From Bilabrum cf. latius (lineage: Eukaryota): a stretch of 64,000 bases of DNA. This document shows positions 4,938 through 43,668 of the stretch, in pieces. Every line of letters begins with the position of its first letter. The first letter of the stretch is position 1. The notes beneath the pieces were generated by a model. The model searched no databases. It was not told the origin of the DNA and saw only the letters and a program-made list of their open reading frames with translations. The position numbers and the translations under genes are program-made. Where the stretch lies: the NCBI GenBank assembly GCA_965178125.1, contig OZ237770.1, positions 434,001-498,000 on the forward strand, written 5' to 3'.

Positions 4938-5693
4938 ATGGCCGCATCATCGCGGGCTGGATCCAGGCCGAACATCGGTCCAAGCAATGGGTCCGCGAAG
5001 AGTAGTTTGGAGGCCGCTGCAGACGCAATGGCGAGCGCTGATCGGGCTGGAGGCATGCGAGCTCTGGACGCCGAGGGCAGGGCCGGCGTGATGGCGGCTG
5101 CGTGTCGCGTGCTGCTGGAGGGCGTGGGCGAGAACCCGGAGCGAGAAGGTCTTGTCAAGACCCCGATGCGCATGGCCCGGGCGCTCCTCGAGCTCACCGG
5201 GGGCTATGCCAAGGACGCTGGTGCGGTGCTCGGGGGTGCTCTGTTCGACGTGGATGGAGGGGGCGGGCTGGTGGTGGTCAAGGACATGGAGTTTTCCTCT
5301 CTGTGCGAGCACCACGTGCTGCCCTTCAGGGGAGTGGCACACGTGGGGTATGTCCCCGGGAGGAGGGTGGTGGGGCTGTCCAAGCTGGCTAGGGTGCTGG
5401 ACGTGTTCGCCAGGCGGCTGCAGGTGCAGGAGAGGATGACCAGGCAGGTGGCAGAGGCTGTGATGACGAGTGTGGGGGCCCGTGGTGTGATCGTGATGGT
5501 GGAGGCAGAGCACATGTGCATGAGCATGAGGGGGGCCCGCAAGCCGGGAGCCAGCACGGCGACCCTCGTGCGGCTGGGGGTGTGTGACGAGCGCCACGAG
5601 GAGGACAAGGGCGAGGCCGTCCGGCTGATGGAGGAGTTCAGGCTGCAGGTGGGGCGCGGAGGGAGCGGCGCTGGTGGCGGTGGTTTCAGATAA
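4938..5693 (+). CDS. GCH1: GTP cyclohydrolase I
   Basis: Motifs [44 protein letters not shown]. Confidence 0.95.
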
Positions 5694-9401: not shown

Positions 9402-10892
9402 ATGCGTTCACTACTTCTTCTCTTAGCCGGATCTGCAGCAGCGCTAGACAATGGTCTTGCGAGAGTTCCATGTGAGATCATCGTGATGGTCCGGATTTTT
9501 CCAACCCTGTCTGCACCATCAATGCTTGAACTCGCAGCAGTATCAAACCATGCACACGCTTTAACTTGCTCCTAGTATGACGCAGTTGCTGGGTGGAACT
9601 CGTGGAATTCGTGAGAGACATGTACCGCCACGCAAGATCCAACCAAGTCAACTCGGGTTTCGTGTGCAGCTCTGCGTACAGGTACCAAATAGTACGACTA
9701 GTTTGCTTGATATCTGCCATACATCTGCAGTTTTGGAATCAACGCTCACGGACAGCCAAAGCTGCCGGGACAGACCACCCCAATCACGGGAGAGGTTTTC
9801 CTGCAAACGGCCCAGGCTCTCAAGACGAGCGGGCTGGCGGCAGCTGGCTACGAGTACGTCGGCATCGACTGCGGGTATTCCATGGGGACCAGAGACAAAT
9901 CCACAGGCCTCATCCTGGTGAACGAGACGCGCTTCCCCGGCGGTCTCAAGCCCTGGGTGGACCGTGTGCACTCGCTGGGGCTGAAAGCAGGCATCTACCT
10001 GGATGCGGGGCCCTCACAGTGCTGCTCGAGGAATATGCCGGGGGCCAATGACGGCTCTCTGGGGAGGGAGAAGCTGGATGCGCAATGGCTCACCGGGATT
10101 GGCTTTGACTTGCTCAAGTATGACGATTGCGGGAATCAGGGCCAGAGCTACCCCGCCATGCGAGATGCCCTCAACGCCACGGGGAGGCACGTGGTGTACT
10201 CCGTGCACGGCCCGCTGGGGGCCGCGGCCGTGGAGCTGTCCAACTCGTGGCGGTCCACGCACGACATCACCAACACCTGGGCCTCCATCATGGAGAACCT
10301 CCACCTGAACCAGCAGTACCACGCCCTGGCCACCCCCGGGTCCTGGCCCCAGGCGGACATGATCGAGGCCCTGCAGCCCAACGTGACCTGGAACGAGAGC
10401 ACTGCGCACATGGTCCTCTGGGCCGCCGTCAAGTCCCCCCTCCTGCTGGGCTTCGATGTGCGGGGTGTGACGAGTGAGCAGTCCGCCATGCTGACCAACC
10501 CCCGGTTGCTGGCCGTGTCCAGAGACCCGCTCGCTGAGAGTGCCACGGTGGTCGCAAATGCGTCGTCATCTGCATCCATCCGCGCCTCGTCCTCGTCTTC
10601 AACGGCCCCGTCATCGTACCCCGAGTGGGAGGTGTGGGCGGCTCGCATGGACGAGCAAGCCAGCGGGCACGGGGGCGTGGCCATCCCGCTGCACCTGGGG
10701 GATGGACCTGCGCCCGTAGATGTGCCCGTGAAGTTTGAGGCTATTTCATGGCTGGGCAAGTTCGCATGTGCGCGGGTGGTGGACCTTTGGACGGGCGAAG
10801 TGCTGGACGAGAGCGCCAGGGGCGAGTGGACCGCCGAGGGACTGGCGCCGCACAGCGCGACTCCTGTGCTACTCAGCAGGGTAACGTGCTGA
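9402..10892 (+). CDS. Secreted GH27 alpha-galactosidase / alpha-N-acetylgalactosaminidase (introns 9472-9585, 9611-9730)
   Basis: Signal peptide + LDNGLARVP, GWNSWN, GYEYVGID, LKYDDC, SWRSTHDI, DMIE, KSPLLLG; introns restore frame. Confidence 0.92.
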
Positions 10893-11027: not shown

Positions 11028-12491
11028 ATGCATAACCTAGTAGTATTGCTAGACCTCACTGCTATTGTCGTGCTTTCGCTTCCGGCCTCCTCTCACCAAG
11101 ACAGTCTTCCGATGACGGACGCGTGTCCGCAGGAAGGACTGCGCTTGGGATTGCATTGGATGGCACCCTTCTTTAGTGGAGGCGGATACAGCTCGGAATC
11201 GATTGCTTTCATGCTTGGCTTGCGCCAGCAAGGATAGAATTGCACATCAATGCGTGAATTGACAATCTCTATTGATCAGCACGGCGATGCCTTCAAGCAA
11301 AGCATGTACGAAGGCCTGCCGCCCGACGATCGGCGCGTCCTCGTGGGCATGTATCAACTGACTTCATAGCCATCCTTTCAGGCCTCCGTATGTCACAGCG
11401 AGCCGGGCGCCTGGACGTTGGGTCCATCTGTTCCTGGCGGTGGTTTGCCTCGCTCTGCTAGCGGCAGCCCGCTCCCCGCCTGGGAAGACCTCGCCCCGAG
11501 GTACCCAACCACTCGGTGCCCTGCTGCAAGAGCCGTGCTGTCGATCGGCCGCACAATGTTCGAGTCGGACCGCGCCCCGAGGGGCTGGGACCGCCGGCTG
11601 GCTCGCATGGACGCTGTCTGGGCCCCGACTCGGTTCCATGCAGCCGTGTTCGGGCGGGCGATCGACAGGTACGTGTCCGCGCTGCTCATCCGGGCTATGG
11701 GAAGCAAGGCATGGGGCAGGGTCAGGAAGCGCCTGCTGCGTGGCTGGAGGGGGGCTACTACTACTGTTGGAGGTGTAAGTGTAGGTGTGCCAGTGGGTGT
11801 AGATGGCAATCGCAGTGATGCTGCCAGTGGCATAGTCGAGCATGGACACGGGCATGGGCAGGAAGGAACAGGGAGTGCGGTAGCAGAGCAAATAGGCAGT
11901 AGGGGTGGATGGGAGCTCGATGCAGATGTGGTGCGCTGCAATGCACTGCAGCTGGGCGACGGGTGGCACAGCAGCACCAACCGCGGCGAGCCATCTTCCT
12001 CGTTCTCCCCTCGCTCCAGCTCTATGCCGAGCCAGTGCTGCTCGCTGGCCAGGACTCGTGCGGAGGAGCTGGGCCCCGCGGTGCCTCACGGCGACCGGAG
12101 CCCCCTGCTCCCCCCCATGTCCCTGTCCCTGTCCCTGTCCACCCCGCCCCTCTGCCTGGAGGGCCCCTGGCTGTCCTCCCTTGACGCCTCCAGGGCCGAG
12201 ATGCAGTCCAGTAGGGGGGCGATGGAGGCCCTCCGACGGGTGGGCCTGGGGCCGGCCATGGGCGTGCAGGTGCTGGGGGAACCAGTGGACTCGGAGTCGG
12301 TATTCAACGGGGATGCCGTGGCGGCAGCTGACGAGGCCTGGGGCAGGATCGTGGCTGAGGCTCCCTGGGACGTGGGGCGGCTCGAGGTGGTCAATGTGGG
12401 GGACCACGGGGAGGTGGTCAATGTGGGGGGCCTAGGGGAAGGAAGGGGCGCCTCTCGGGGTGCAGGGAGACTCTGGCATCCCCGCCTGCCG

Positions 12492-12550
<59 letters not shown>

Positions 12551-15266
12551 CGATGGTGCTGGGCCTAGGGGCGCCACCGGCATGGGCCCTGTGCCTGACG
12601 CCTCCACACTGCGCCTGATGCGGGGGCAGCCCATGCACTCGTCACACCTGGTAGGGAAAGGGGCCTCCTCGTCCCACCGGTGGGGTCACGGCCCCTGGGT
12701 AGATCGGATCAACGCGGGGGTGCGTGCCACATGGCGGGGCATGGTGGAGGGTGTCATCAGCAGCCGAGAGCAGGTGGAGGCGGCGCTGGAGGCCAGCCGG
12801 CGCCCTCGGGGTGTGACGAGTGCCCATGAGGATGAGAAGGTTCGTTTCTTGTCTGTGTTCAAGTGGGAGAGGAGGAAGGGGTGGGACGTGCTGCTGCGGG
12901 CGGTGCTGGCGGCGGGGGCGGCGCACCCCTTCGCCCCCGTGGAGGGCCCAAGGCTGGCTGCAGGGCTCGAGGGAGAGGAACAAGAGGAAAGGGGATAGGG
13001 TAAAAGGATGAAAGAAGTCCTTGACTAGGGTAGGACGAGCACCCGATCCAGGGAGTCACTGTGGGATCGGATGAAGCGAGCCAAGCTAGCAAAAGCAAAA
13101 GGCAATGCGAAAGCCAAGGACAAGGCCTAGGCCCATGCAACAAACGGCAAGGACGGGCACGGGGATGGAGCAGGCGACCATGGACATGCTGGGTAGCGCG
13201 CAATTTACCCGCCCCCTCTGACCCCCCCATCCTGGCGGCAACCAGAGCTGACTCTGCTGACTTCGTCCTACCACTCGACTGTAGACGAATTCGAGCGGGC
13301 CATACGGGGCTTCTTGCGGGAAGGGATGGCGTGTGGGCCCGGGCCGCTGCCTACCGGTGAACGGAAGGAGATGACACAGATCAAAGCGGATGACGGGGTG
13401 CAGTCCATTGCAGCGGGGATGGATGGGACACCGACGGAGATGAGTGGGACATGGTCTACATCAAAAGCAGGATGGGAGGGGGCTCTCCTCGAGGCCCAGC
13501 GAGTGGCAGGAGAGGAGCAAGAGGAGCAGATAGCAATGGACAGCTAGGCAGCAAAAAGGATGCAGGTGCTATAGGTGCAGGTGGTACCTGATGGACCCAG
13601 TGCGCTTGCAGAGGCAAGTTGGGCCAGCGGGGTGCTTGTTCGCATGGAGGCGGCGATCGATGACTGGGCGAGTGCACTGCAAGGCGGTGCACCCCCATTT
13701 CTTCCCTGGTGGTTGACAGCTCCAGGGGCACCCTCTTGGAAGTCCCTGGCCCAAGGTCGAGTGGGCCGAGCCATCGAGTCAGCCCGGCGCGATTTGCTGG
13801 TGAGAGGCGGGGGAGGGGCCTACATGGGCATCGGGGAACACAGCACGGGAACATGCGGGGTACGGGTGACGAGGCCAGTCGCTGTGTGTGTAGAGGGGGA
13901 TGGCGTAGGTGCACTGCATGGTGGTGCAGGCGCATCAGCTGACGGTATGCCCGGGCGCACGGAGCCAGCAGGCAGCTTGCTCCCACCGGCCCTGCACTTC
14001 GAGGTGGAGAACAAGAGGGGGGCCCTGCTGCAGAGGGCTGAGGAAGTGGCCGTGCGATGGCTTAGAATCACGAAGCAACAACAATGGCGTGGACCAGGGA
14101 ACAGCGCCCATGCACCATGGAACCTTAGCATGGACCAGATGTGCCTGGAGCAGTTCGAGAGGTACAGCACATGGTCGGTGAGAAAGATGGAACTAGGCAT
14201 GGGAGGCACTGCTGTGATGAGCGGTACTGAGCGCAGCTAGGCTCAAAGCAACGTGACGAGTGCGGGCTCCCTGCAGGCGCACCACCTGCCCCGCCTTCCT
14301 CCGCTGCTCCTTGCCCTGCTGCTTCGCCTCTCGGTGCGTAGACTGCATCCCGACCGACTGCCATTGCTGCGAGTCCTCCGCGGCCTGCCCTCTGCCCAGG
14401 TGCCCCGTGTCATGGGGGCCCATCATGCGATGGTGCTCCCCACCAGGGGGGAGGGATGGGGGAGACCACATGCGGAGGCAATGGCTATCGGGCTGCCACT
14501 CGTGGCGGGGGGCTGGTCGGGGCCCAGCGCGTTCGTGAACGACTCGGGGAGGTGGTGGAGGGGAATGCAGGGCGAGAGCGACAGAAATAGACAGAAATTG
14601 AGCGATGGATAGATCTACATGCAGGGCGAGAAAGAGGACGAATAGGAGCGGTGCGAGTGGTGTGACGAGCATCAGACGGGCTTCCTTGTCCCCCCGACCC
14701 ACCTGTCACCAGTGCCTGACGGGCCCTTCGCGGGCCATCGAATGGCCGAGCCTGACCCCGTGCTGCTCGAGGCAGCGCTGGTGCGCGTGTGGTTGCAACC
14801 GGGACAAGCCGCCGAGGTGGGGCGCAGAGGCAGGAACAGCATGAGGGACCTACACTCTCCAGCCCAGTACGCGGGGCGGGTGCTCGGGCAGCTGGGATCC
14901 ATGCAGCGGAGCATAGAGGCGATCGGGGGAGGGCGGGTGCAGGGGTACGAGACTGTCCCGGGGCGGTGTACTAGTAGCGAGGTCAAGGATGGATTCGTGG
15001 AGGACGGTGATGTGACGAGTGCCCAGACGGGGTGTGGATGGCGCAGCCCTTGGGCGCACGGCACTGTAGCGCTACTCGATGCGCTTCGCGAGGAGGCCGA
15101 TTGTGACCGAATCGACCAGTCGAGTGATGAAAGTGGTGCCAGTGAGTGCAAGCACAAAGCGGCAGACATGGCCCGCAAGGTGCTCTCGGAAATTAAAGCA
15201 GCTAGCAAACGCTTGAAGATCCGCTGGGCGCATATTGGCTAGGCGTCGTCGACCAGCAAGAACTGA
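11028..15266 (+). CDS. GT4 (group 1) glycosyltransferase, 1412 codons, 12 in-frame TAG
   Basis: Ordered motifs WMAPFFSGGGYSSE, QHGD, CHSEPGAW, GRTMFESDR, FLSVFKWERRKGWDVLL, VLPTRGEGWGRPHAEAMAIG, GPFAGHRMAEP in one frame; only TAG interrupts; ends TGA. Confidence 0.88.
12495..12548 (+). repeat. (CAG)18 microsatellite encoding poly-Gln
   Basis: Pure CAG run inside the glycosyltransferase CDS. Confidence 0.95.
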
Positions 15267-15463: not shown

Positions 15464-18160
15464 TCAAGGTGATTTGTCCCATCCCGCGCCCGTGCCACCA
15501 TTCCTGCCGGAGTTTTTCATCGCCTTGAAATGCTGCAGGTCCCCCACTATCCGTTCAAGGCTCAGTAGACGTCCCGTACTCACGTCTCTGGCCTCCTGTG
15601 AAATCTCCTATCGGGAACATTCAGGACCCATTCCAGCCCCCAAGCCGGAAAACGACCCCCCCGCGCCATCTGCAGCAAACAACAAACCATGGTTCTGTGA
15701 ACTCTGAGACGTGGCCTGCTATACAGCGGCGCGGCGACGGATCGCTGCACCAAGCGCGCCGCCCAGTGCTCGAGCGACCGTTTCATCTTCATCATCCAGC
15801 CTGCTGCTAGATCTAGTGCTGGATCTCCCCCCACTGGCATCGACACCGGTGCTTGCCTCCCTGCCACTCCGCGGGTGCAGGGCTTCAGCATCTGTACCAA
15901 GACCAACGCCGACGCCAACGCCAACATCAACGCCAGCACCATTGCCAGCATCAGCGCCAGCGCTAGTCCGAACTATATTTTGCATCGCTGCGATGCTCTG
16001 CGTTCGGCTGAGTGCGCCAGCCTGCTCGGCCCATGCACTTCGTGGCACGTCGGTCTCGCCCCGCGCGTGTGCATCACTGACTCGGCCGTCAACGAGGCGT
16101 GGACTGCTGGCGGCCCTTGCTCTTCCCCGCGTCCCCGTTGCAGGCACAGTATCATCCCTGGCAGGTTCAGATCCGGAACCGGGACCTTCTTGCCCTGCGG
16201 ACGCACCCGGCCCACCGACCCCAACTGCCGCCCTCGATGCCTACAGAAATGTAACTGTTGTTGCACCTTGAGCTGGAGCACGGTCACGCGGGCCTTGTGC
16301 CTCGTGATCATCTGGCAAATGAACAACCCTACTCTTCCACAAGCGCGGGGTGCTGATCCCCTCCGCGCTGCGTACCCTTTTTCGCCGCACCCCCTGAGTG
16401 TTTGATTGCTTTGCACGGGCACTACCGCTCGTTTGTAGGGATCTGTCGACTGCATCCCGATGTGATGCCGGTAGGAGCCCCCTACCCCGCGAGTTTCCAC
16501 TGGCAAGTAAACCGCCCGTAGCCCCGAGAACCGGCAACCCCCCAGCTACCGGTGACCCCCGCGAGGAGGTCCACATCTCACCACTGGATAGTTCAAGCCG
16601 ATGACGACTCAGGGGTTCGACTGATTCTGCTGCCAGTCTCTTGGACCCACTGGCAGTGCCGGTAGTGGCTTCCACCGCTGCATCTGGGCGAGTATTGGGA
16701 GCGATTTCCTAGTCAAGCCCACCTACACGGGCAGGCTGGATGCTACCCCGTGTCGTCCGCTTCCATCTAAGATCCTTCTGTACAAGTACGGCGGGCGGCT
16801 GTGCGGAAGCTATGCCCGCTATGCCAACGGACGACACATTGCCCTCTGCCGGCAGATCGTGACTCAGTCGGCTCGAAGTCCGGGCTGGCATGCCACCACC
16901 GCTGGGCTTGTGACTCAGTCGGCTCATAGTCCGGGCTGGCATGCCACCACCGCTGGGCTTGCCGCCACGGCCAGCTCCTGTGCCAGCATGGGACCCACGG
17001 AGATTGACCCCAGGTACTCTTCGATCCAATCTCCTAGCACGAGATAGACCTGCAAGCAGGAGAATACGCCGTGCAGCCGAGCCCCGGAACTGGCCCTAGC
17101 CCCTGGGCGGTGGGGGATGCACAGCACTGGGGGATCGTCTAGCAGGTGCCTAATACCTGGCCTATGACCGCCACTTATTCCCGTGCATGCCCCTGATTGG
17201 CACAAGGGAAGCTGCTCGTGGTGGGCTAGCCTAGCTCCTTGCCGACTTAGTGCTTGGCAAACCGCTGCCGCGTGCACTTTCAGCTGACTCGAAGTCTTCA
17301 GCGTGACTTCTCAAGTAGCGTTTGCGATGGCGAGGCAACTTAGCTGCCTACAACGGGCTCTGTGGCGTGCTGCCGAGAGCGACATTCAGAAAAGCCTCTT
17401 CACTGCCGCGCGATGCGTCCAGCAGCTTCCACACGATGCGGGCGGTCTCCTCGAAGCTGTCATCTGCGAATTCGCGCGACAGGGAAATGTGGTGATGGTC
17501 GGCACCAGACCACGAATGGGACCTCTTCCGGCGCTTCCTGCCGCTGCCATCGTCATCAAGACCCATGGCAATCGCACCAGCCTAGCCACTGCCCCCGGCT
17601 ACCGCGGCCTCTCCGCTGCCAACGGCCCCCGACTGGACTTCCGGCAGACCAGTGATGTCTTCTGGAATTTCTCCGCTTGCCAACCAACCGGCAAGTTCCG
17701 GCAATACCAAGGCTTGGGAGTCGAGTTCCCGGAGCTTTCGAAGCAGACGCTTTATGCGACCGAGCATGCCATCGCGCGAAATGCAAGGGTCCGAGTTCGA
17801 TCTGAAACGGCCATGTGAAATATCCAGCCTTTGCTGTCTCAATAGTGTGGCATTCAGCGATATACTGGGAGCTTCGGCTTGCATGTTTGCGTCTGACTGC
17901 ACTTGTTCAACCGATTCTGCTTCGACGTGCCCAGAACTTGAAGGCCTTACCGGAAGCCATGCCTACGGCTCGTTGCTAGGCCCAGAAGCTCGCTCTCCAG
18001 GAGTCTATGCACAAACTGTATTCCGATGTACGGAATTTGAGCTACTGTTACCTCCAGGACTATATAAGTTGCCACTCCTGCTTGCGCGATGCTTCTGATC
18101 TTGCAGGTTTCCGGCCAATTGTTCATTGCTCCAGCATGCGCAACTGTCTGCGAAAAACAG
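15464..18160 (-). CDS. Hypothetical protein, long exon with 12 in-frame TAG; 5' end unresolved
   Basis: ORFs 15719-16147, 16241-16675, 16709-17029, 17348-17566, 17582-17902 share one frame and are separated only by TAG; terminal TGA at 15464. Confidence 0.6.
16859..16961. repeat. 51-bp tandem duplication (in frame within the minus-strand CDS)
   Basis: GTGACTCAGTCGGCTC..GTCCGGGCTGGCATGCCACCACCGCTGGGCTTG occurs twice. Confidence 0.85.
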
Positions 18161-19161
18161 ACTTCAGAAAAATCCGAGTACGACCAGACTGGCATGTGCG
18201 TAGTATGGTAACCTCATTCGGTCCAACGGGAGCCTTGTAGTTGGGCAGCTGATGGACCTTGAGGGGTCGAGGGGTGCTTATTCACCTAGTTTCAACATAC
18301 TAACTTCATGTACTAGATTACCCAAATATGTTAATGAAAGTAGGCAGGCGAATTTAACCGCTGTCACGTGTAAGCCTGGTCGGATGTTGCTCACCACTTC
18401 TACATGTCGGTGCTGGCTCGCCTGCCTCTCTGCCGCAACACAAACCCATTGTTGTTTGTGGCAGAATATTGGGGTAGGAATTATAATATAACGCGGCTGT
18501 CAATGTTGTGTCGCTTTAGGCTGTCACGCTATGGTGGTGGAATCCGACGGCCAATCTGAGGATATGATGATGCCAAACTGATGGGCATTCCGCATCGGGA
18601 ATCCATTCGGGATCTCTGCCAATCTGCTGATGTCCACAAACGTGGCATTCAGCAGCACGAAGCCGATATCCATTGGCAAGACTCCAAGCGGATGCCCGGC
18701 GAGCAGATGTAGGCGCTTGCGCCTCCAGAGGCAAGCATGAGTCGGTAGGAGGCTCATCGTGGGAGAGCGCCACGATGTTCTGAGACTGATGAGAGCGGCT
18801 AGCATGTCAGCTCGCTGTGATGCATGAATGATACACACTATGCTAGTTATTGGAATGCACGTTAACAATGCAATGCACGGTACCACTGGGCACCCTCGCG
18901 TTGGTGCTGCTCCGGCGATGCTGCTTCCGGTGAGATCCGCCCCAGCTCCAAGACCGCAAAGCGATAAAAGAGGCGGGGCAGCACCTGTGCAGCAGCAGGC
19001 CGGGCAATCGCAGCCAAAGCGACGGCCCTGAGGCTGTCACCACGGCGGGAAGCGTCCTCAAAGACAGAGTGTGAGCAGGGGAGCAGAAAGCAAGGAGCAA
19101 GTGCTCCCTCTCACCTCCGCCCCCGCGCTCGCTTCACGCCACTGGCATCGACACGAGCTGC

Positions 19162-20206
19162 TCAGTTCTTCTTGCAGATGTCGGGCACCTCGAAGTCGTG
19201 CTCGTCCACGTGCCTGTCGATGTCGTAGATCTGCTCGTAGTGGAAGCCGGTGTCGTGGTCGAAGTAGTCGGAGCGGACGGGCACGCAGGTCTTCTCGGCG
19301 AAGGTCTGGTAGGTGAAGATGTGCTGGCCATCGATGTCACCCTCGCCCTCGAAGCGGGCCGCGTACAGCACGTTGTCAGAGGCGATCTCGCCGAGCGTCT
19401 CGATGCCCGTGTAGTTGGCGAACTCGAAGGGGCGGTACGGGATGAAGGGACGGCGGATGTCCTCGGTGCGGCACTCCTTGGTGCGAATGTTGATGATGTA
19501 CGCCTTCTTCTCTTCGTACAGCTCGAGCACGTCGATCAGGTCCTCGTGCTGCTCGTCGCCGAAGTGCGCCTCCTCGACCACATGGCGAGCGCGGTACTTG
19601 GCAGAGAAAGCCACGCGGCCGCGGATCTGGTACGTGCTCGTGTGGTTGTGGTAATCACGCTGGTTGGGGTCGAACGCGGTGATGCGGCCGGTCCACTCCT
19701 GCGAAAGCAAAACAGATCGAGTCGGGCGCCAATCACAGGTGAACGGAAGACTAGCTCGACCATAGCCACCGCAGATACAATACATAAAGCTACACCAATC
19801 CCATCCAAGTGATAAATAGAGCTAATATGCTACCAGATTCACTGCTCAATTGCCGCAAATTAGGCCAAGTGATCGCGATTCATGCTGGCTTACGGCTCGC
19901 GACTACGCTTGACGGGCGCTTTCTGAAGTGCAACTCTCCGAACGATGCGTATACGGCACACACAGCGACACACACGGGGTCAGAATGAAACCAAAAACAT
20001 ACTTTAGCCACACAATTGGCTGGGAGCACCCAGGCCTTCATCGCCAGGCGACAGGAGGTCGAAAGGATCCTTCTCAGGCATATCTTGGTGGATCCAAAGC
20101 TTCCGTGCGTTTGATCTTAGCTCACATCGGGGTACTAATCGCAGCGGTGGCTCTGAGCAGCTGCCAGGGTACCGATAGTCGCGAACACAGCGGCGAGGGC
20201 GTACAT
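19162..20206 (-). CDS. Ependymin-related (EPDR-like) secreted/lysosomal protein (intron 19699-20125; TAG at 20135)
   Basis: Exon 1 MYALAAVFATIGTLAAAQSHRCD*YPD spliced to EWTGR...; Cys pattern, CVPV and terminal FEVPDIC resemble the ependymin family. Confidence 0.75.
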
Positions 20207-20489
20207 TTTCTTCTCTGTGGCTCCTAAATGTGTCCGTGAATGGGAATCGCCGCAGCCCTAGGCTTGTCGATCCTTTGGAATTGTTTGTCGCGGCACAGAA
20301 CTTCACCGAACCGAACCGAACCTCTTGCTCCTGAACCATCATCTGTCACAGTGAATGACATACGCACACCAAAAAATGGACGTATTCAAAGAAAACTTTA
20401 GTTTTGCCTGCTAGCTATGGGCAGCCAACCGGTGCTCGGTGCAACCTTGCGGACCCAGCCCAGCGGACACCGTACAACAAACATTTTTT

Positions 20490-21367
20490 TCACCCGAGCC
20501 CCGCCGCCGCGATCCTGAACAGGTCAAAGTGCATGGGTTCATCCGCCAGCTTCTTGTTAAATCGCTCCACCCTCTCCCTGTGGCTGCTCCCCGCCGCGCG
20601 TGCCACCGCCCGCGCCTCGCTGGCGGCCTGGTACTTGGCGTGCTTGCGCTCGGCCTCGGTCATTCCATCGTCTATTTCTTCTTCGACCTATGTCTCGCCA
20701 ATCGCCTGCAGCTCTGATCCCCTTCCACCGGCCACTGCTGCGCCAGCGCGCCCCTCCCCCTCGCCTGCAACCCCTGTTTCTCGGCGTCGACTAGCGGCAG
20801 CCAGTGCGCTTTCCAGCTGAGCATCCTTTACCCCTGCAGCTAGTGCACGCTCTCTAGCGGCTTTGCCGGCATCTACGGCGCTCTGCAGCTCCCGCCGGCG
20901 CCTCTTGCTCAGAGGACGGTCGATGCCATCGTCGGAGCGAGCCAACCGAGCAGCCGCAACGCGCTCTTCGCGAAGCGCCTTGATATCGGACGCCGATACT
21001 ACAGGTGAAGAAGGCTTCTAAGAAGATGACGACACCGATGAAGATGATGTTAATCTCGATGATGATGTTGCAGCAAAAGACTTGCCCTCTTCAATTGGGA
21101 CGGGCACCGGCAGCTCAGGTGGCACGGTCTCTCGCGGGCGCCTGCGGGACGAGACAGGCACGCACGTGGCACGCCGAACATTATGAAATCATACTAGTAA
21201 TGCATGCGCAGTTGTTGAGAATCACGTGCTCACTTGGACCCAATGTTCGATTTTCCGTCCGACTTCCCAGATTTCTTGTGTTTCTTTTTCGACTTCTTGT
21301 CCTTCTTTGTCAACTTGGTAAGATTGACACCTTTTAGTTTCAATGAACCACCCATAAAGCTGGACAT
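20490..21367 (-). CDS. FAM32A: FAM32A (DUF1754) family protein (intron 21142-21233; TAG at 21018 and 20688)
   Basis: N-terminal GGSLKLKG plus Lys-rich tract; C-terminal TEAERKH...SHRERVERFNKKL...HFDLFRI, reachable only through TAG. Confidence 0.8.
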
Positions 21368-21579: not shown

Positions 21580-24500
21580 ATGATTGGATCTAGTGCAGGC
21601 GATAGCCGCCGCAGAGGGGGGAGATCGGTGCACAATCCGTATCTTTCCTTCGAGGATGTGGCAAAGGGCGTGCTGTCCTCGGAGGCGAGGGCTCAGAGGC
21701 AAACCTTAGGCGCAGGGTCTAGCATGTGCCAGTAGTTGAAGGTACTATCTAGCTTGCGCGCAGACGAACTGACCGGAAGCAAGGTAGTCTCTGAGGCAAG
21801 CCTTGTTGGTCGTCTGCTTGCGAGACCGCAGGTGTTGCGAGCTAACAAAGGCGCCGTCCCGGGACTGCTCGCACCACCTCCTAGCCGATTTTCTCCATCT
21901 GAAGTAGCAGCTGCGCTCGGTGGAGATCGCGTCGTGGTCGCGCACGACAGCGCTAGGGCTGCTTCGAGCGATGGCGAGTGGACACTTGACGACCTGGCTG
22001 AGTACTTCGCGGCGAGGCAGAGAGACGTTGCGGCTGCAAGTGAGACTATCATGAATATCATCTCGCTAGAAGTGTCTGGCACGCCCCTGGAGCGGTTCAT
22101 TCGACCACCGGAAGCGGTGCTGCGGCACGACTGGCTGCACCGCCCCGGGCTGTGGCCCTCCTGGCGCAGGGCCCGGGGGCAGTTCCCCAGGGCAACAAAG
22201 TACTGCATCATGTCGGCCAGGGGTAGCTTCACTGATTTCCACTGCGACTTTGGGGGTTCCTCTGTGTGGTACAGGGTGCTCCGGGGGTGCAAGCGGTTCT
22301 TCCTGCTGGCACCGCCGGAGATGCCTCGCCGATCGGAGCTTGACGAGGGGGTTCCGGGGGCCAGCGGGACCTCTGCCGTGTCTCGGCTGGCGTTTCTGGC
22401 CGCGGTCCACCGGTGGACCACGCGCTCGCGGGCAACCGCCAGCGCAGGGGCAGGAGGGGGGTCCGATCCGCTGGCGGGATGGCTGCCCGTCTCGATCCGC
22501 CGTGCAATGCACCTGGATCCCGAGGGCAAAGGAGGCCCCCAGGACGACTCTGGTGGTGTGACGAGTGGCTCCACTCTGGTGGTGGACCTGCGGGCCGGGG
22601 ACACGCTGCTGCTACCCGCGGGGTGGGCACACGCGGTGTGGACGGAGCAGGTGAGAATCTGTCGAATATGTTGTCGTGATGCCTTATGGTTTTGTTCTCG
22701 CTTGCTTGCTTGATTGTGTGTGTGTGCATCGGCATGGGGCCGATGTCCGGATCCTATCGCTGATGCGCACCATGCGCCCGCTAGAGCCCGCCCTGACCAC
22801 CTGTTCGGTCTAGGAGGGTATTTGAACGGCGCTACAGCAGCCCACCCCTGACATTCTTCCAGGGAGGCGTACCACGGCGCCCTCCTCCTCGAGGGGAGGG
22901 GCCGACGGGGTCCAACAAGCGGGGGCGGCCGACTCTACCCACGGCCCCCTCGTGGGTCTTCGCTCTGAACATTTGAATGCGAATGCGAATGCTCCGTGTG
23001 TACAATGCGTTTGCACGATTCTGAATCCTCTTCGCGCGATTCGTGTTCCTCTTCAACCTGGATCGCCGCAGGACTCGCTCGTGGTGGGCGGCAACTTCCT
23101 ATGCGGGGCGGCTGCCAGGGAACAAGCGGTGGCATCGAGGGCCGAGCAGGCAGCGCGCGCCATGGACGCCCGCGACAGGGCCAGGGCCGGACTGGCCCCG
23201 CTCGCACCCAGGGAGGCGGAGCAGTTCCGGTTTCCCATGGAAGAGCCGCTGCTCTGGTACGCCCTCTCGTGGTGCGTCCGTGCGGCGACCGGGGGCATCC
23301 CCGAGGGGACAGAGGGGCCGGGGGGTGTCCCCTGGGTGGGGGGTCTCCCCCCCTCCGAGCACGCGGGGCTGGGTGCCCTGGTGCAGTGGCTGCTGCGGGC
23401 CCGTGGCAAGCACGGGTGGAGGGCCAGGCAGCGGGCGGCGGCATCGCTGGCTGAGCGGCAGGCGCAGGCCCAGCAGGAGGAGGAGGCAGCGGCTGTATCC
23501 GGCTCCGGGTCCGAGTGGCTCCCCAGCGGCGGCGGGGCGGTGGGGGAGGGCCTGGATCCGCTTGCAGTGGAGGAGGCGGCGCTGGAAGCGGCCCACCTGG
23601 CTGGGCTGGAGGGGGGCGAGTGCGAGCTGCTGCTGCTGCTGGTGGGGGCAAGGCTGGCAGGTGCTGGGCTGCGGGAGGAGGCGGCGGCAGGGAGCGTGCT
23701 GATGAGTCGGCTGCTGGTGGGACCGGGGGATCCACCGGGTTCTAGACTGTCTGTCTCCTCTGCGTCATCTTCTGCAGCTGTAGCAGGAGCAGGGGATGGA
23801 GACCGCGAGCATGGGGAGGAGGAGGAGGATCCCTTGGCTCAGCTGGTGCTGGACAAGACGAAGCAGTGGCTAGAGGAGGAGGAGAGGCAGAGAGCAGAGG
23901 CCGAGCGGCAGCCCAGGATCAAGCTCACGCTCGCTGGTGCTGGTGCTGGTGCTGGTGCTGGTGCCAGCTCTTCGGCACCTTCCTCCGCCCCACGGACCTC
24001 GTCATCTTCATCGAGGGTGTCTGAGTCTGCTCGTGTTCGGCCCCTGCGGTTCGACGGAGCCTACGACGCGCCCAAGCTGGGTGACGAGTGCGGTGGGGAG
24101 ACCTGGTTCGAAGAGGAGATGCGACGCCTAGCGGGGGTGTCTCCGGGCAGGTATGACGAGTCTGGAGCGCCTGTGGGTGTGACGAGTGCAGTGGTGCTGG
24201 AAGACGCAGAGGGGCCATCGGGTGGCGACGAGGAAGTGGGGGATGTATCTCCATCGGCGCACGGGCAGATGGGGGTGCAGAACAGCAAGAAGAAGAAGAA
24301 GAAGAAGGCTGTCAAGCGGGGATCGGCCTAGGACGACGCCTGGTCTGAAGGTGAGGAGGAGGACGGCATGGATTCGGCCGATGAGGCGGACGCGCAGGCA
24401 GAACGAGAGCTGGAGATGCAGGCCGTTGAGGAGGAAGAGGAGGACTGGGTGCTGGATGAGGAGGAGGAGGAAGACAACGGAAGGGTTGCTGGGGCTGGGC

Positions 24501-24811
24501 GCAAGCGGAAGGGGCGCGGGCAGCAGCAGCGGGGGACAGGTGGGGCCAAGCGCCGCAGGACCGCTGCATCATCGTCCTCGTCCTCGTCCTCATCCTCGTC
24601 CTAGAGAGTGTCTGTGCAGGCCGTGGGTGGATCCGGGGGAGGCACGACCATCCGACTGCAGCTGGGGCGCATCCGTCCGCAGGGGCAAGGCGGGGCGGGG
24701 CGGGGCGCTGGGAGGGGCAGGGGTCGAGGGGGTGGACGGGGCGGCAAGCGGGGCGGCGGCCTGTCTGCACTCAAGAAGCGGCTTGGCGCTCTGAGGCGTG
24801 GAGGGCGGTGA
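21580..24811 (+). CDS. JmjC-domain histone demethylase (KDM2/KDM7-like; intron 22651-23071; TAG at 21733, 24329, 24602)
   Basis: NIISLEVS, KYCIMS..GSFTDFHCDFGGSSVWY, PAGWAHAVWT|DSLVVGGNFL joined across the intron; ends TGA. Confidence 0.88.
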
Positions 24812-25060: not shown

Positions 25061-27192
25061 ATGCTAAGAACGCCGTGCAACCAATTCGAGTATAATCCTC
25101 ACAACAAGCTGGGAGAGGGCGGAGAGGCGACTGTCTATAAGGGCCGAAGCCTGAAGGACGGGCTACCTGTAGCAGTCAAGGTCACCAGACGCCCTGCACG
25201 GGCTGAGCTACGTGCAATGCAAGTAATGGGTAGAATCCCCAATGCAGCTTCTAGTGTGCTTGCAAGTGGTTCTACGTGCCACGGCTCGTACGCTGTAATG
25301 GTGAGCTAGGCACACTCCCGAGCAGTTGCAGGTGGGCAATCTGCCCTGCAGCATTAATGTTGGCTATTGGTGACATCTGCCTGCCAGTTAGCCTAATTTG
25401 AATGCTATTATGTCAATGCCCCGCCAACGAGACTTAAATCGGGTAGCCCCATGGGCTAGGGCTCTCATGGACACAGTGGCAGTGGCAAACCAGAGCTCTT
25501 TCCCCGGGTGGTCGTCGCCAGCCCAGCGTGGCATGACACACGTGTCTGCGCCAGCGCGCAGCATCCGGACCAATGCAGCCAAGATGCTTCATAGGATCAA
25601 ATACTAATGAAAGTTTCCATCAGCATCGCCTCATTCACACCTGCCAAGCCATGCCCTTTACTCCGCAGGAGCTGTGCAACGGCGGCGACATGCTTGACTT
25701 TGTAGAGGCACGCACCAGGACCATCCCCATCCCAGGCGAGCATCATGCCACTAGTAGTAGCAGCAGCAACTGCATGATGGTGGCCCTTCCCGAGGAGCAG
25801 GTGGCGGTGCTAGCCGTCCGACTGGCCCGCACCCTGCTGGTGGCACACGCACTGGGGCTGGCACACGGGGACTGCAAGCTAGAGAACGTCTTCGTGAAGG
25901 GAGACCCAGAGGCAGCCAGCAGCACCACCCGCGCTGTGGATGGCTGGAGACGGCAGGCGAAGCCGCATGCATTCGACAAGACCGCAGGCGCCAGACTGGG
26001 AGTGGACGCAGCGGGCTGGGAGCGAGCGGCTAGTGCCCCTACCGTGGTGCTGGGTGACTGGGGATTCGCGAGAGACGTGTCACCCCGCATGCAGCGAGTG
26101 AGCGCGGACGTGTGCAAGAGCAGCGGGTGGACCATGCCTGCCGGTGCCGACAGTGAGGGATGCGGCGCGGGTGCATCGCATGGTGGGGCAGGCGTGCCGC
26201 AGCACCGACTGGCCATCGGCCACTTCATCGCGCCCGAGTCGGACCGGGTGGCGAGGACGCTGGGCTCGTGCCCGCTGGCGCACAGGGGGGTGGCCGACAG
26301 GATCTGCGCTGCCACCGCCGATGCATTCTCTCTGGGGGTGTGCCTCAGCAGCATGGCAACCTGCACCTGCGTGATGTCTGACCCGGCCACAGGCCGAGTG
26401 CAGGCGGGCGATGCGCTGGAGATGGAGGGCGGGCCTTTCTCGCGGGGGCTGCTGCGGGCCGTGCACAGGCTGTGCCACCCGAACCCAAGGCTCCGCTGGA
26501 GCGTGCAGAAGGCGTGGGAGGATGACGAGTGGTTCCGCTACGCGCGGCGCCTAGAGGAGGCGGTGTTCGCCCCAACAATGCGCGCTTCAGCTTGCGCGCC
26601 TGTGGCTAAGCTGGTGCTAGCGCCAGCAGCGGCAGCAGCCTCGCCCGCAATGTCGAAGGGGGCACTAGTCGTGTCGAAGACTGGGGCAGAGGCAGGCAAA
26701 GCCGCCTGCTCGTGCGCCTCACCGAAAGGAGCCGCATGCAGCAAACAAGTGCCATTAGATGCGGGAACTGACAAAGTCGTAGGCACAGGTGCGAGGGCTA
26801 CTGATGGGAGCACCCCCATGCAGTGCAGCCGGCAAGAGTCCTGCATGTCCATGCGGAGCGCTGGCTCCGATAGCACGATGTGTGACTAGTGCAGCCCATC
26901 CGTCCCAGTCACGCGCGGGGCCGAGGAGGAGGTCGAGGACGGAGGCTGCGGGCACAACAGGTCAACTGCCAGCCAGGTATCTGTGGGCGCATGCCGGGCG
27001 GGTGATCGAACCTGCGAGAGGCCTCGCATCGATGGGAAGGCTGGCTCCGGGTATGAATCCTTCGAGGGCGTATAGGAAGTGACTAGCCGATTCGGGGAGG
27101 CTGCAGCTCCGAGACCGGGCCGAGCCGCATCGGGAGCATGGGACTGTGCACCATTGGGCAATTCGGGGCAGGCTGCCATGAGTGACTTCTAA
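25061..27192 (+). CDS. Ser/Thr protein kinase (intron 25301-25668; TAG at 26887 and 27073)
   Basis: LGEGGEATVYKG, AVKV, ELCNGGD, HGDCKLENV, DWG, APE; ends TAA followed by AT-rich sequence with AATAAA. Confidence 0.88.
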
Positions 27193-29032: not shown

Positions 29033-30243
29033 ATGGGCGTCCAGATTTCCATGGTAGCAGTGACTGCAACCTCGGGAATACTTGAATCAGCTTATAAGGA
29101 CTCCAACAATGAAGGCCTTGTAGTGATTGGACGGCCACTCAACCCAGGCGCGCCTGGAACCGCCTACGACACTGGCTTCGCGTGCGACTTGGACGGTGGG
29201 GCCGCCTTCGACGAGACGACGACTGAGAAGGCATGCACACGGATGGGCAAGAATATAAGGGGAGGTTACACCCTTTCCGGCCAGAGCGTAAACGGTGGCT
29301 CCTTCTCTGCGCGAGACGTCGTATGCGCAGCGAACCAGGGCTTCAATCCATCGCAAAGTGATACGAGCCGGCACTGCCAGTTGAATTCGGACGTATCGTC
29401 ATGCTCCAACACAAATGGCATTTTCATTTCGTGCCTCCCAAACTTTTCCGGGGCAGCGGCCGACTTCCTCCAGTTCAGGCTGGCAAACGCAGCGGGAGGC
29501 ACCACTGACCAAACGACCACGACCGGGACGGGCGTGCTTTAGGTGAGCGCAGCAGGCACGGACTACGCCCCCGTTTGCGATCAAGGTATCACACAAGCCA
29601 CGGTGACGAAACTCTGCAGCTTCATGGGAGTCCCGGACACTGGCACCTTCAGCACTGGCGTGACGACGGGCGGGTCATCCTCCTACGCTCTCAAAGACCT
29701 GGACTGCAGCGCGGCGAACAACGGCGGGGAGTGCGACTTCGATCGGAGACCGGGGTGCGGAGCAGATCAGGCCGTGACAATCACGTGCGCGCTGCCCAGT
29801 CCGAGTCCCAGCCCATCCGCGTCGGTGAGCGCCAGCCCGTCCACGTCGCTGAGCGCCAGCCCGTCCACGACGGTGAGCGCCAGCCCGTCCACGTCGGTGA
29901 GCGCCAGCCCGTCCACGTCGGTGAGCGCCAGCCCAACCACGTCGGTGAGTCCCAGCCCGTCCACGTCGGTGAGCGCCAGCCCAACCACGTCGGTGAGCGC
30001 CAGCCCATCCACCTCGGTGAGCGCCAGCCCGTCCACGTCAGTGAGCCCCAGCCCGTCCACGTCGGTGAGCGCCAGCCCATCCACGTCGGTGAGCCCCAGC
30101 CCGTCCACGTCGGTGAGCGCCAGCCCATCTTCATCCCCAGATGCAGCCGCGGCATCCCCCTCGCCCTCGGCTTCCAGCCTGCCCCTTCCCGCCCTCGCAC
30201 GGCGGGAGGAGCTGCCGGTGGACAGCCCCGCTCGGGCGACCAC
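29033..30243 (+). CDS. 5' part of host SRCR-like domain / mucin-stalk membrane protein, interrupted by the virophage (start uncertain)
   Basis: Two Cys-rich SRCR-like units (FRL...GVL*V...PVCD...KLC..MG...LKDLDC...C...C...AVTITC) followed by (SPSTSVSA)n; TAG at 29540 in frame. Confidence 0.75.
29798..30130 (+). repeat. 24-bp coding minisatellite (SPSTSVSA)n
   Basis: Tandem AGCCCGTCCACGTCGGTGAGCGCC-like units. Confidence 0.9.
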
Positions 30244-30273
30244 TGACGTAGTCCGAAAATAAAATAGGAATAT

Positions 30274-31246
30274 AATGTCATTATATTCCTATTTTATTTT
30301 CGGACTACGTCACGCATGCTTCACTTTTTTAATGTGTCCATATATTCACTTTTATTTTTTTATTTATTTATATTTTTTTGTATAATTAAATTTTTTATAA
30401 AATAATAATTTTGTTGTAATATATTGAATAATTATAATTCGTTACATGCTATACTTTTTATTTTTTTATAATATTTTCGCGGATTAAGATTAAATCAATT
30501 TATTGATTTTTATCAAAATTTATTTTTATTCGATAGAATGAAAATAATTAAATTCGAAGAATTTAATTTATAAATGGATCATCAAATAATATTTATTATA
30601 TTTCTATAATTTGTACAATTTGGCGGATGGCTCACATTTTAAAAAAAGTTCGCCAGAAAGCAGAAAATAAATTTATTTATTTTTTGTTTTCGTTTTTAAG
30701 AAATGGAAAAAGCATATTTATTTTATTATGGGAATTTTTAAGGGGTTAATCATTAAAATATTTTATTGCTTTATTTATGGCTCTATAATTTGAGTTCATG
30801 CATTGGGTCGCTCTCTTCGTTCGCTTAAAAGTGATATAGTAATAAAAGTTAGAAATAATATTATAATAATTTATTTTAATTAATTTACTGAGAAAGACAA
30901 TAAAATATTTTTTTTAAATTCTGTCACCAATTGAAAAAGTAATACAGATAACTAATAATATTAAATATTAATATATTAATGGAATATAGTAATATTTTCA
31001 GAATACTTGCCTATTATACTTTTTTTTAGAAGGGTGACAAAAGCGGTGACAAAACGTGATTTTCGAGGTCTCAGGAAATTTTTATTTTTAAAATCATATT
31101 TTCTGTAGAGTTCAGAATATTAATTTTGTCATCGGTTTTGTCATCAAAAAATTACAATTTATTAAAGGTGATGCTTAATTTTAAATTGGAGCTGTAATTT
31201 TGCATTTAACTCTTCGAATGTGTCATAAACATATATTTGAGAGGGT
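30274..31246 (+). repeat. Left terminal inverted repeat (~970 bp)
   Basis: Near-identical reverse complement of 56889-57855; the differences I noticed were homopolymer lengths and one substitution. Confidence 0.95.
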
Positions 31247-31549
31247 AAAATAAAAATATAAAATCAGGAACAAATCGCGACAAATTATATATTTTCTGAA
31301 TTGTCACGAGCTGGAGAACACAAAAATCATATTTATAAGTTACGTGCATTTTTATTTTAAAAGTTAAAAATTAAAAGCTATATAGATACACACTCAAAAG
31401 CATGTAGATATATATAAAACAATGTCTGGCTAACATGAACAACTCAAAAACAATTGACACATACACTCCAAGGCTATTAAATCCCTATATCGTATCTATA
31501 TAATTATACACAAGAAAAAAAAAAGCGAAAATAAAAACTATATATTTTT

Positions 31550-31553
31550 TCTA
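31550..31553 (+). promoter_or_regulatory. TCTA late-promoter motif (also at 32511, 34371, 49413, 50879, 52961, 53594, 56329 and before several minus-strand genes)
   Basis: AT-flanked TCTA 13-15 nt upstream of the ATG in eight plus-strand virophage genes; same core as the CroV/mavirus late promoter. Confidence 0.8.
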
Positions 31554-31566
31554 ACTATATAATATT

Positions 31567-32457
31567 ATGAGTCGTAATATTTATTTAACTGGACAATCCA
31601 GTGGAGCAAATGGGGCAGCTTCAATTGCTCGTGTAAATGTAAATAGACAAACAGATATTATAAGTGATACTACGGGATGGTTAATTTCAGTAGAACGCTT
31701 AATTATGAATAAAATTCTTCTACCCTTATTTGATCCAAACGCAAATAAACCCACTATATCATTTCAAAATATTAGTTCTGGTGTCGTAACTTCTGAGGTT
31801 GTTGATTTTTCGGCATTTGATGACCAAGACGGATATATTTATGATTATAGAGATGTCGCCTCGGCAATATCAAATACATTTAGTTCTTTATGTTCAACTT
31901 TAAGTATTGCAGATGTTCCCATAATGACATTTAATGTATCAACAAATAAATTTGAAATTGTTTCGGTTGGTGCTTTTAGATCTGCTTGGAAAATTGGATT
32001 TAATAATGATCTATTTACTTACATGCCATCTTTTAATTATGAATCTGTTTTATCATCTCCTTATTATATTGAACTGGCAGAAGACAGAGAAACACAATAT
32101 ACAAGCACACTTGAGCTTATGTCCCCTGTTTCTAGAATTGTAATTAAATCGAATCTACCAACTGAAAACGAACTTTTACCTCCCCCAATTAACCAATCTG
32201 ATGCAATCGCTGGATCTTCAGACAGTGCGGGTTTTCTAGTCGACTTTGATGTCCAACAGTCGAATAATCAGTCTGTTTCACTTATAAAATATAGTGCAAG
32301 AGATACTGACCATATATGGCACAATTTTAAAGAGTCTAGAAATATTAATTCATTCTATCTAGATTTTTATTGGTTTGACTATAATAATGTTGGTCATCCA
32401 ATCGCATTAAATAAAAATTCACAAATTGATATAAAATTATATTTTGTACAACAATAA
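31567..32457 (+). CDS. Virophage minor capsid (penton) protein
   Basis: 296-aa beta-rich protein directly upstream of MCP, mavirus-like order; C-terminal DFYWFD...IKLYF. Confidence 0.75.
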   Translation: MSRNIYLTGQSSGANGAASIARVNVNRQTDIISDTTGWLISVERLIMNKILLPLFDPNANKPTISFQNISSGVVTSEVVDFSAFDDQDGYIYDYRDVASAISNTFSSLCSTLSIADVPIMTFNVSTNKFEIVSVGAFRSAWKIGFNNDLFTYMPSFNYESVLSSPYYIELAEDRETQYTSTLELMSPVSRIVIKSNLPTENELLPPPINQSDAIAGSSDSAGFLVDFDVQQSNNQSVSLIKYSARDTDHIWHNFKESRNINSFYLDFYWFDYNNVGHPIALNKNSQIDIKLYFVQQ

Positions 32458-32527
32458 TAAAAATAATATAAGTTTTAATAATCAATTAGACAAAAATATA
32501 ATAATTTTTTTCTAATGTTAATTTATT

Positions 32528-34321: not shown

Positions 34322-34387
34322 ATAGATTAATTTTATTGTATTAATTAAAAGATTTTAATTTAGATTTATTTCTAAACTAAAATTATT

Positions 34388-35566
34388 ATGACTCCTCCAC
34401 TTTCGAAAGAACAAAGGGAAATTTTAAGTAATATATATTATGATGAACATTTTTTATTTGGTCGTGATAAATTATATGAATTAGTTAAATCAAGAGGTTA
34501 CGATATAAGCAGACGACAAATAATGAACTGGTTAAAATCTCAAGAAAACTATCAATTATACAAACCAATTAAACAAAAGAAAACAGTTCAAGCAACAGTA
34601 TTAAAAAGACCTTATGAGCAGTTCGCCGTGGATTTAGTAAATGTCCAAGATATCGAAAAAAATAATAAAAAGTACTTGTTAACTGGCATAGACCTTTTTA
34701 GTAAAGAGGGTTTCGCATTTCCTATTAACAATAAGAAAAAAGAAACCGTATCAAAAGCATTAAAATTAATGATTGGACAATTAAATAAAAAACCATCAAT
34801 TATTAGATCTGATAATGGGAGTGAATTTAAAAATTCGGTTATGACTAAAATGTTAAAAAAAGAAGGAATAAAACAAGTATTCAGTAATCCCTATTCACCC
34901 GAGTCAAACGGTGGTATTGAACGTTTTAATGGTACTCTAAAACGCATGATCAATAAGTCTTTACAGCTTAATAAAGATTGGGTTAATCTTATTTGGGATC
35001 TTGTAGATGCTTATAATAATTCTAAATCAAGAATAACTAAATTTACGCCAAATGAAATTATTAAAAATAAAAAGTTATGGGAACAGGTTTATAAAAATAC
35101 TAGAAAAGAAGCAAAAAATAAATTAGTGAATGAAAGTCATATATTAAAAAAAGGGGATAAAGTAAGAATGGCAAACCTTGAGGATAATTTAAACAGAGGT
35201 CAAAATTTCAGTAAAAAAATATATGAAATTCAAGAAGTATACAAACCAAAGAAAACTTATAGTGTGCCTTCATATAAAATTAAAGGATTAAAAGGTAGAT
35301 ATTATAATGAAGATCTGCAAAAAATTAAATATGTAATGAATGAGCAAAAAGAAGAACAAAAATGGGTTATTTCAAAATTACTTAAACCTACATACAGAGA
35401 TGGCGAACCTAGTTATTATGTTCTATGGAAGGGTTATAAAACGCCTACAATAGAGCCAAGAAAGAATTTAATGGAAGATGTACCAAAATTAGTTAGAAAT
35501 TATGAACGCCTTTATAACGTTAAATGGTATCCAAAAACTGAAACCTTTGACTTTGATTTAAGATGA
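34388..35566 (+). CDS. rve (retroviral-type) integrase with C-terminal chromodomain-like region
   Basis: DDE motifs FAVDL, RSDNGSEF, NGGIERFNGTLK; C-terminal YYVLWKGY..PTIEP..NL. Confidence 0.93.
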   Translation: MTPPLSKEQREILSNIYYDEHFLFGRDKLYELVKSRGYDISRRQIMNWLKSQENYQLYKPIKQKKTVQATVLKRPYEQFAVDLVNVQDIEKNNKKYLLTGIDLFSKEGFAFPINNKKKETVSKALKLMIGQLNKKPSIIRSDNGSEFKNSVMTKMLKKEGIKQVFSNPYSPESNGGIERFNGTLKRMINKSLQLNKDWVNLIWDLVDAYNNSKSRITKFTPNEIIKNKKLWEQVYKNTRKEAKNKLVNESHILKKGDKVRMANLEDNLNRGQNFSKKIYEIQEVYKPKKTYSVPSYKIKGLKGRYYNEDLQKIKYVMNEQKEEQKWVISKLLKPTYRDGEPSYYVLWKGYKTPTIEPRKNLMEDVPKLVRNYERLYNVKWYPKTETFDFDLR

Positions 35567-42929: not shown

Positions 42930-42984
42930 CCGGCGTTAGGATCAATAAAAAATATTGTTTAAATGCGTTTTAAACTGTTAATAT

Positions 42985-43641: not shown

Positions 43642-43668
43642 GTATATTGATACATACGAAAAAAATGT

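Follow-up and report, generated by a model that had tools for sequence, protein, structure and literature searches.

Nuclear genes of a GC-rich, virophage-bearing protist probably read UAG as glutamine

NCBI translation table 15, in which UAG means glutamine and UAA and UGA are stops, makes assignments identical to those that we propose here for 64,000 nucleotides of DNA from contig OZ237770.1 (positions 434,001 to 498,000, Bilabrum cf. latius; the whole stretch is called the window), in which a gene for a GT4-family glycosyltransferase and many of its neighbours carry TAG in frame. Few nuclear lineages, just three of them outside the ciliates, are known to have given UAG a new meaning while leaving UAA alone, and the available text of PMC11687900 lists UAG alone as glutamine in Iotanema spirale (Fornicata), Protocruzia tuzeti and two phyllopharyngean ciliate lineages. 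The available text of PMC5304391 likewise gives UAG alone as glutamine, with UAA and UGA terminating. The window shares with these lineages the change of UAG alone to glutamine and the two remaining stops; unlike them, it comes from a genome with a GC content of about 0.60 and few introns that holds an endogenous virophage and Ngaro-type retroelements, and, to judge by a weak grouping of the GT4 gene with Cafeteria, its host is not a ciliate and not obviously a metamonad. Codes in which both UAA and UAG (UAR) encode glutamine are listed in PMC11687900, in the part available, for many ciliates, Ulvophyceae, hexamitid diplomonads, Streblomastix and Amoeboaphelidium. They resemble the window code in that a stop one transition away from CAG or CAA is read as glutamine, whereas TAA is never internal to the window's host frames and closes 3 of 12 of them. 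The same text reports UAG as leucine in the rhizarian exLh and some ciliates and as serine in Scotinosphaera; these lineages too have uncoupled the meanings of UAG and UAA, but in well-aligned contexts TAG faces glutamine 10 times, serine 3 times and leucine once. We conclude that the window is likely to be nuclear DNA of a GC-rich unicellular eukaryote in which UAG is a sense codon, most likely for glutamine, and UAA and UGA are the only terminators.

The genomic setting also has a described counterpart. Cafeteria burkhardae carries endogenous mavirus-like elements with Ngaro retrotransposons inside them (Hackl et al. 2021, PMC8547959, in its available text). The window is similar: a virophage element that is rich in AT and ends in inverted repeats sits in a GC-rich host genome and contains a GC-rich retroelement of about 6 kb with the arrangement A1-[ORFs]-B1A2B2 (ORFs, open reading frames). 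It differs in its capsid gene, which has no close relative in IMG/VR and no match in a phage collection (the window itself is not in IMG/VR), and the kinship with Cafeteria rests on one gene tree. In the available text of PMC8547959 the term 'genetic code' is absent, and the single mention of stop codons concerns fragmented ORFs.

We found that the GT4 gene (11028-15266, forward strand) is one frame of 1,412 codons with 12 in-frame TAGs, no internal TAA or TGA and a closing TGA. The TAGs lie at 11235, 11367, 12996, 13026, 13128, 13194, 13545, 13572, 14238, 14610, 14643 and 15240; a script returned the same 12 coordinates as an earlier note on this DNA, which had been made from the sequence alone. 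A thirteenth TAG, at 11025, stands 5' of the ATG. The two other frames of the stretch contain 49 TGA, 4 TAA and 32 TAG, so about 26 TGA or TAA codons would be expected in the gene's own frame by chance, compared with none observed. The TAGs are flanked on both sides by conserved GT4 blocks, in the Pfam match and in the homologue alignment, which bears out what the earlier note had claimed from motifs.

This pattern extends across the host parts of the window (1-30300, 36600-43000 and 57800-64000; GC about 0.60). Pfam matches to GT4, ependymin, JmjC/cupin, kinase, SRCR and GTP cyclohydrolase I, and a match of FAM32A to solved structures, identify the window as nuclear eukaryotic DNA (Table 1). 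Thirteen host frames, including the putative genes 499-1509 and 2206-4392, which have no family match, comprise 8,545 codons with 55 in-frame TAGs and no internal TGA or TAA. Nine of these frames end in TGA and three in TAA, and the remaining one terminates at a splice site. The two other frames of the 13 stretches hold 290 TGA, 33 TAA and 144 TAG; the 323 TGA and TAA would lead one to expect about 161 in frame, and none is internal. TAG itself is not avoided, as its density is 0.64% in frame and 0.84% out of frame. Among the trinucleotides of the first host region, counted on both strands, TGA (765) exceeds TAG (509) and TAA (200). All 12 frame ends examined are thus TGA or TAA, albeit in a small sample. 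The TGA of the FAM32A-like gene falls where the human homologue ends, and this gene and those for GTP cyclohydrolase I and the ependymin-domain protein end at plausible C termini. The counts agree with the earlier note, which had reported more than 40 TAGs, no internal TAA and gene ends at TGA or TAA.

We then consider transcripts. Seven sequencing runs carry window sequence (X1-X4 from one study, X5 and X6 from a second and X7 from a third), and contigs of X1, X5, X6 and X7 were compared with window positions 11000-30300. X1 matches the window letter for letter and may be its own source. A GT..AG joint from 22646 to 23068 is present in X5, X6 and X7, and the X1 contigs are continuous through this intron. 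A second joint, from 19697 to 20125 and bounded by CT..AC (a minus-strand intron), occurs in X5 (depth 1117) and X7, with contigs reaching 92-95 letters into exon 1. Poly-T loose ends lie at 18844 in X5 and X6, and depth in X5-X7 is uneven, from below 10 to above 900 among adjacent genes. From the joints, the poly(A) ends and the uneven depth we infer that X5, X6 and X7 are RNA. In their contigs, 19 TAGs are unchanged, with no other letter at any of them. Twelve are those of the low-complexity ORF 15464-18163, spanned together by the X5 contigs 15347-16906 and 16932-18147. Two (20690 and 21020) belong to the FAM32A-like gene, where X5 and X6 contigs each span both, and two (21733 and 24329) to the JmjC gene. 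Two more (26887 and 27073) lie in the last exon of the kinase gene, which is spanned by the X5 contig 25668-27204 and at which an X6 contig starts with 269 letters located elsewhere. The last (20137-20135) is in exon 1 of the ependymin-domain gene, in frame across the splice of the transcript with the highest coverage in the compared stretch. Neither splicing nor editing nor an error of assembly can therefore explain these sites, where RNA-like contigs from two other studies contradict the possibility, raised in the earlier note, that the TAGs are spliced out or edited.

The joints also amend two gene models of that note. Its minus-strand gene at 19162 had been credited with a TAG at 19824 that proves to be intronic, but the true exon 1 (20216-20125) has its own TAG, the one at 20137-20135; the peptide encoded by this exon resembles a signal peptide. 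An intron at 22647-23067 interrupts the JmjC gene and, read in the frame of exon 1, contains three TGAs (22711, 22849 and 22966). The 'one internal TGA' of the earlier note may stem from these. The spliced JmjC frame has 937 positions, three TAGs and a single terminal stop.

A young mobile element uses TAG in the same way. The Ngaro-type retroelement inside the virophage element has split direct repeats in the order A1-[ORFs]-B1A2B2, with 42768-42944 equal to 36677-36853 (177 nt) and 36854-36983 equal to 36522-36651 (130 nt), both 100% identical. Its RVT_3 (RNase H-type) match is above the cut-off and its Phage_integrase match below the cut-off of 27.1 bits. Its two ORFs contain 12 and 4 TAGs in frame and no internal TGA or TAA. 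The identical repeats indicate a young element, yet it carries 16 in-frame TAGs. With the frame statistics and the 19 TAGs of the RNA-like contigs, this supports the proposal of the earlier note that TAG is a sense codon and TAA and TGA are stops.

Relatives of the retroelement are numerous. A search of 1.84 billion representatives gave 2,720 at E<=0.001, among them relatives at 36-61% identity; none was found in IMG/VR. The public protein fragments P0037, P0039 and P0040 and their cluster mates (97-100% identical) stop exactly at four TAGs of the retroelement. They resemble the products of standard-code gene calling on other copies, truncated at TAG. P0199 terminates immediately ahead of retroelement codon 493. 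A homologue search across four TAGs of the retroelement gave no match of 176-562 amino acids and so no read-through copy of that length. Four metagenome contigs proved to carry related retroelements, at 42-43% identity, with a matching TAG pattern. In one of them, L002, 1,841 codons include 7 TAGs and no TGA or TAA; in another, L001 (GC 0.68), a frame of 846 codons that runs off the contig at either end has 9 TAGs. The latter pattern suggests that further organisms may also read TAG as sense.

If TAG is a sense codon, it very likely encodes glutamine, with glutamate next. Codon 978 of the retroelement, a TAG, lies in a conserved P-R-Q-T-P motif, and glutamine occupies the position in 7 rows from 5 families (P0036, P0041, P0047, P0192 and metagenome loci). 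At codon 1400 glutamine is found in P0197 (a copy about 94-95% identical) and P0036, and at codon 453 in P0199 (59% identical). The TAG at 29540 in the SRCR gene has C as its first letter in variant contigs of X1 and X7, giving CAG; these variants may reflect a small gene family or heterozygosity. In L001, an environmental relative of the retroelement, seven TAGs are scattered among a CAG tract at 1195-1260. BLOSUM62 sums over a first tally of 11 sites were 16 half-bits for glutamine, 4 for glutamate and 1 for arginine; over the well-aligned contexts of a 15-row alignment they were 26 for glutamine, 4 for glutamate and -3 for alanine. An alignment test for conserved glutamine found one strongly conserved column, with glutamine in 5 families, and 5 further sites with glutamine among the counterparts, which is a narrow basis. 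Both TAG columns in the N-terminal block of the GT4 homologue alignment are variable and uninformative about the residue, and in PDB searches with the SRCR part and FAM32A the TAGs fell in unaligned or unconserved stretches that gave no residue information. Glutamine, as the earlier note had proposed, is thus the best-supported residue, on few conserved sites, and glutamate, its alternative, is the runner-up.

The virophage element behaves differently from the retroelement within it. It measures about 27.4 kb including the retroelement and has a GC content of about 0.29, compared with 0.60 for the host. Its terminal inverted repeats (30355-31246 and 56889-57777) are about 900 nt long and 99-100% complementary, which suggests that the integration was recent. 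Pfam matches are MCP_V20_C (E=1.7e-13), rve (E=2.8e-16) with a weak chromo domain, and DUF5906; no Pfam family was found in five other ORFs scanned, and a polymerase, an ATPase and a protease were not identified. An element that encodes a virophage capsid protein and an rve integrase between terminal inverted repeats agrees with the earlier note, according to which the host carries a mavirus-like virophage. The virophage ORFs were called with TAG as a stop, and they tile the element without in-frame breaks. Among the 19 of at least 80 codons, 16 end in TAA, 3 in TGA and none in TAG. The 18 non-nested ORFs (5,899 codons) contain no in-frame TAG, 26 CAG and 173 CAA, with 229 TAGs out of frame. 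At the host ratio of TAG to CAG (55:260), about 5 TAGs would be expected in these ORFs. As TAG is used neither in frame nor as a stop, the virophage genes would read the same under either code.

Several observations weigh against UAG as glutamine, and most of them concern the residue. TAG could instead specify another amino acid, glutamate before all and alanine, arginine or an aromatic residue less so, which we regard as unlikely. At TAG 29540 the Pfam SRCR model scores glutamate at 28.6 and glutamine at 26.4; this preference of 2.2 bits leaves the earlier note's argument from local context (for example GVL-TAG-V) weak, although the variant contigs with CAG at that site speak for its conclusion. 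Glutamate also faces TAG in retroelement columns 1360 and 1651, and several TAGs lie within acidic stretches. Other columns point elsewhere: a TAG of the L002 family (alignment column 1221) is phenylalanine in 5 families, and in the window retroelement codon 1529 is alanine in 3 families and codon 1271 alanine in the closest relative. Most TAGs stand in poorly conserved or low-complexity stretches, so that few sites, almost all of them from a single retroelement family, bear on the residue, and exchange of TAG and CAG is the commonest transition, which makes it weak by itself as evidence between close copies. On the other hand, glutamine leads glutamate by 22 half-bits where the context aligns well and by 12 over the first 11 sites tallied, the sole strongly conserved TAG column is glutamine, the L001 TAGs sit amid CAG codons, CAG takes the place of TAG in two close variants, and no residue but glutamine recurs across sites.

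Somewhat less probable again is an ambiguous code, in which UAG is read within genes and terminates by context at some gene ends. Some ciliates, karyorelicts among them, and Blastocrithidia have such context-dependent codes. The final GT4 TAG lies 8 codons 5' of the TGA and could serve as a stop there, and the gene ends examined number only 12; however, no examined frame requires an end at TAG, the genes with recognizable C termini (FAM32A, GTP cyclohydrolase and ependymin) close with TGA or TAA, and TAG ends 0 of the 19 virophage ORFs. We give very little credence to the view that the TAGs reflect damage, whether pseudogenes, C-to-T hypermutation, introns, RNA editing or assembly error. A C-to-T change does turn CAG into TAG, many TAGs fall in segments that homologues lack, and the genes have introns, but damage would also have yielded TGA (from CGA) and TAA, which are absent from the interior of the 13 host frames. 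Moreover, the introns that we found contain TGAs and the TAG-bearing stretches do not, the 19 TAGs are kept in spliced or polyadenylated transcripts, and the retroelement is young. The transcript data carry less weight in two respects: X5-X7 have no RNA record, the automatic label for X5 being 'probably DNA', so that their RNA nature is deduced from the contigs themselves, and the GT4 gene is represented in X5 by bin depth only (7 of 7 bins, 11000-15507). The 64-kb window has no tRNA gene detectable by ARAGORN and no eRF1 gene, a further point against UAG as glutamine. If UAG is nevertheless read in this way, the decoder would be a glutamine tRNA with a CUA anticodon that probably arose from tRNA-Gln(CUG), and eRF1 would no longer recognise UAG, as in other lineages in which UAG or UAR means glutamine.

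The GT4 gene is also our guide to the host. Its best named relative is from Cafeteria (44-52% identity), and a 36-row tree unites the window protein, the Cafeteria protein and one more with support of 81/94, on a long branch. The host may thus be Cafeteria-like, as far as one gene tree with a long branch can indicate. An Atlas look-up with GTP cyclohydrolase I added nothing useful on its taxonomy. A full-text literature search, with supplements and subscription journals outside its reach, returned no report that bicosoecids, other stramenopiles or virophage hosts read UAG as sense. A Phaeocystales paper from the same search was set aside, as it concerns plastid UGA as tryptophan and not nuclear UAG. 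The code itself is a known variant; the lineage and the setting would be new. The runs date from 2025, and a description of the code may be in preparation. We put forward tentatively, at slightly less than an even chance, that this is an independent, unreported reassignment of UAG to glutamine in a lineage of Cafeteria-like, free-living flagellates (possibly bicosoecids) and is common to relatives in the four metagenome contigs, and that the virophage has been kept free of TAG, so that the code difference could affect the range of giant viruses and virophages able to replicate in these hosts.

Table 1. Positions of host genes and mobile elements in the window.
Feature	Positions	Strand	Basis
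GTP cyclohydrolase I, no TAG, TAA stop	4938..5693	+	Pfam E=1.2e-61
ORF of 336 codons, alpha-galactosidase-like by eye, no TAG, TGA stop	9882..10892	+	visual reading
GT4-family glycosyltransferase	11028..15266	+	Pfam Glyco_trans_1_4 27.4 bits; N-terminal block aligns with 17 homologues
Low-complexity ORF, 900 codons, 12 TAGs, TGA stop	15464..18163	-	no family match
Ependymin-domain gene, last exon; TGA stop 19162-19164, poly(A) site 18844	18844..19697	-	Pfam Ependymin E=5.6e-18
Ependymin-domain gene, exon 1; ATG 20206, in-frame TAG 20137-20135	20125..20216	-	splice joint; frame continues into exon 2
FAM32A-like gene, TAGs 21020 and 20690, TGA stop	20490..21161	-	PDB FAM32A E=0.011, C-terminus
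JmjC/cupin gene, exon 1, TAG 21733	21580..22646	+	Pfam Cupin_8 E=1.7e-7
JmjC/cupin gene, exon 2, TAGs 24329 and 24602, TGA stop	23068..24811	+	splice joint
Protein-kinase gene, last exon, TAGs 26887 and 27073, TAA stop	25668..27192	+	weak Pkinase match
SRCR-domain protein, Ser/Pro repeats, TAG 29540, TAA stop	29033..30262	+	Pfam SRCR
Virophage-like element, GC ~0.29, interrupted by retroelement	30355..57777	.	inverted repeats; MCP_V20_C, rve+chromo, DUF5906 matches
Ngaro-type retroelement inside virophage element	36522..42944	-	split direct repeats; RVT_3 24.1 bits; weak Phage_integrase 22.4 bits
Retroelement putative recombinase ORF, 4 TAGs	37024..38361	-	
Retroelement main ORF, 1905 codons, 12 TAGs, TGA stop	37218..42935	-	

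Some features of the host regions stand apart from the code. The two genes without TAG, 4938-5693 (the well-conserved GTP cyclohydrolase I) and 9882-10892, have third-position GC contents of 0.79 and 0.83, respectively, as if TAG were a non-preferred codon in genes of such high third-position GC. Three collinear direct repeats (130, 69 and 61 nt; 75-90% identical), shared by 5588-5883 and 9000-9345, flank the gene at 6097-8205, as if it lay between duplicated segments. At 24524-25167 the summed contig depth reaches 16775 in X1 and 700-1900 in X5-X7, with many loose ends of GAC/GAG-type repeats; this is an acidic low-complexity tract common to many loci. The Ser/Pro/Thr-rich tail of the SRCR protein is encoded by a 24-nt tandem repeat (29731-30201, 14 overlapping copies). 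In the right host flank, near-identical stop-to-stop ORFs of 129-130 amino acids start once every 131 nt over about 60570-61840 and so point to tandem repetition with a period of about 131 nt.

A further independent case, in a genome rich in GC, is relevant to the question of how UAG and UAA come to differ in meaning. The window has few UAA codons, which argues against a simple 'codon capture under AT pressure'. There is also a practical consequence, since standard-code gene calling shreds these genes, as the public fragments that end at TAG illustrate. The window further offers a natural system in which a host, a retroelement, a virophage and presumably a giant virus share one translation apparatus, with the retroelement using TAG freely and the virophage avoiding it both in frame and as a stop. 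The code and its setting are of clear interest for genetic-code evolution and protist virology.

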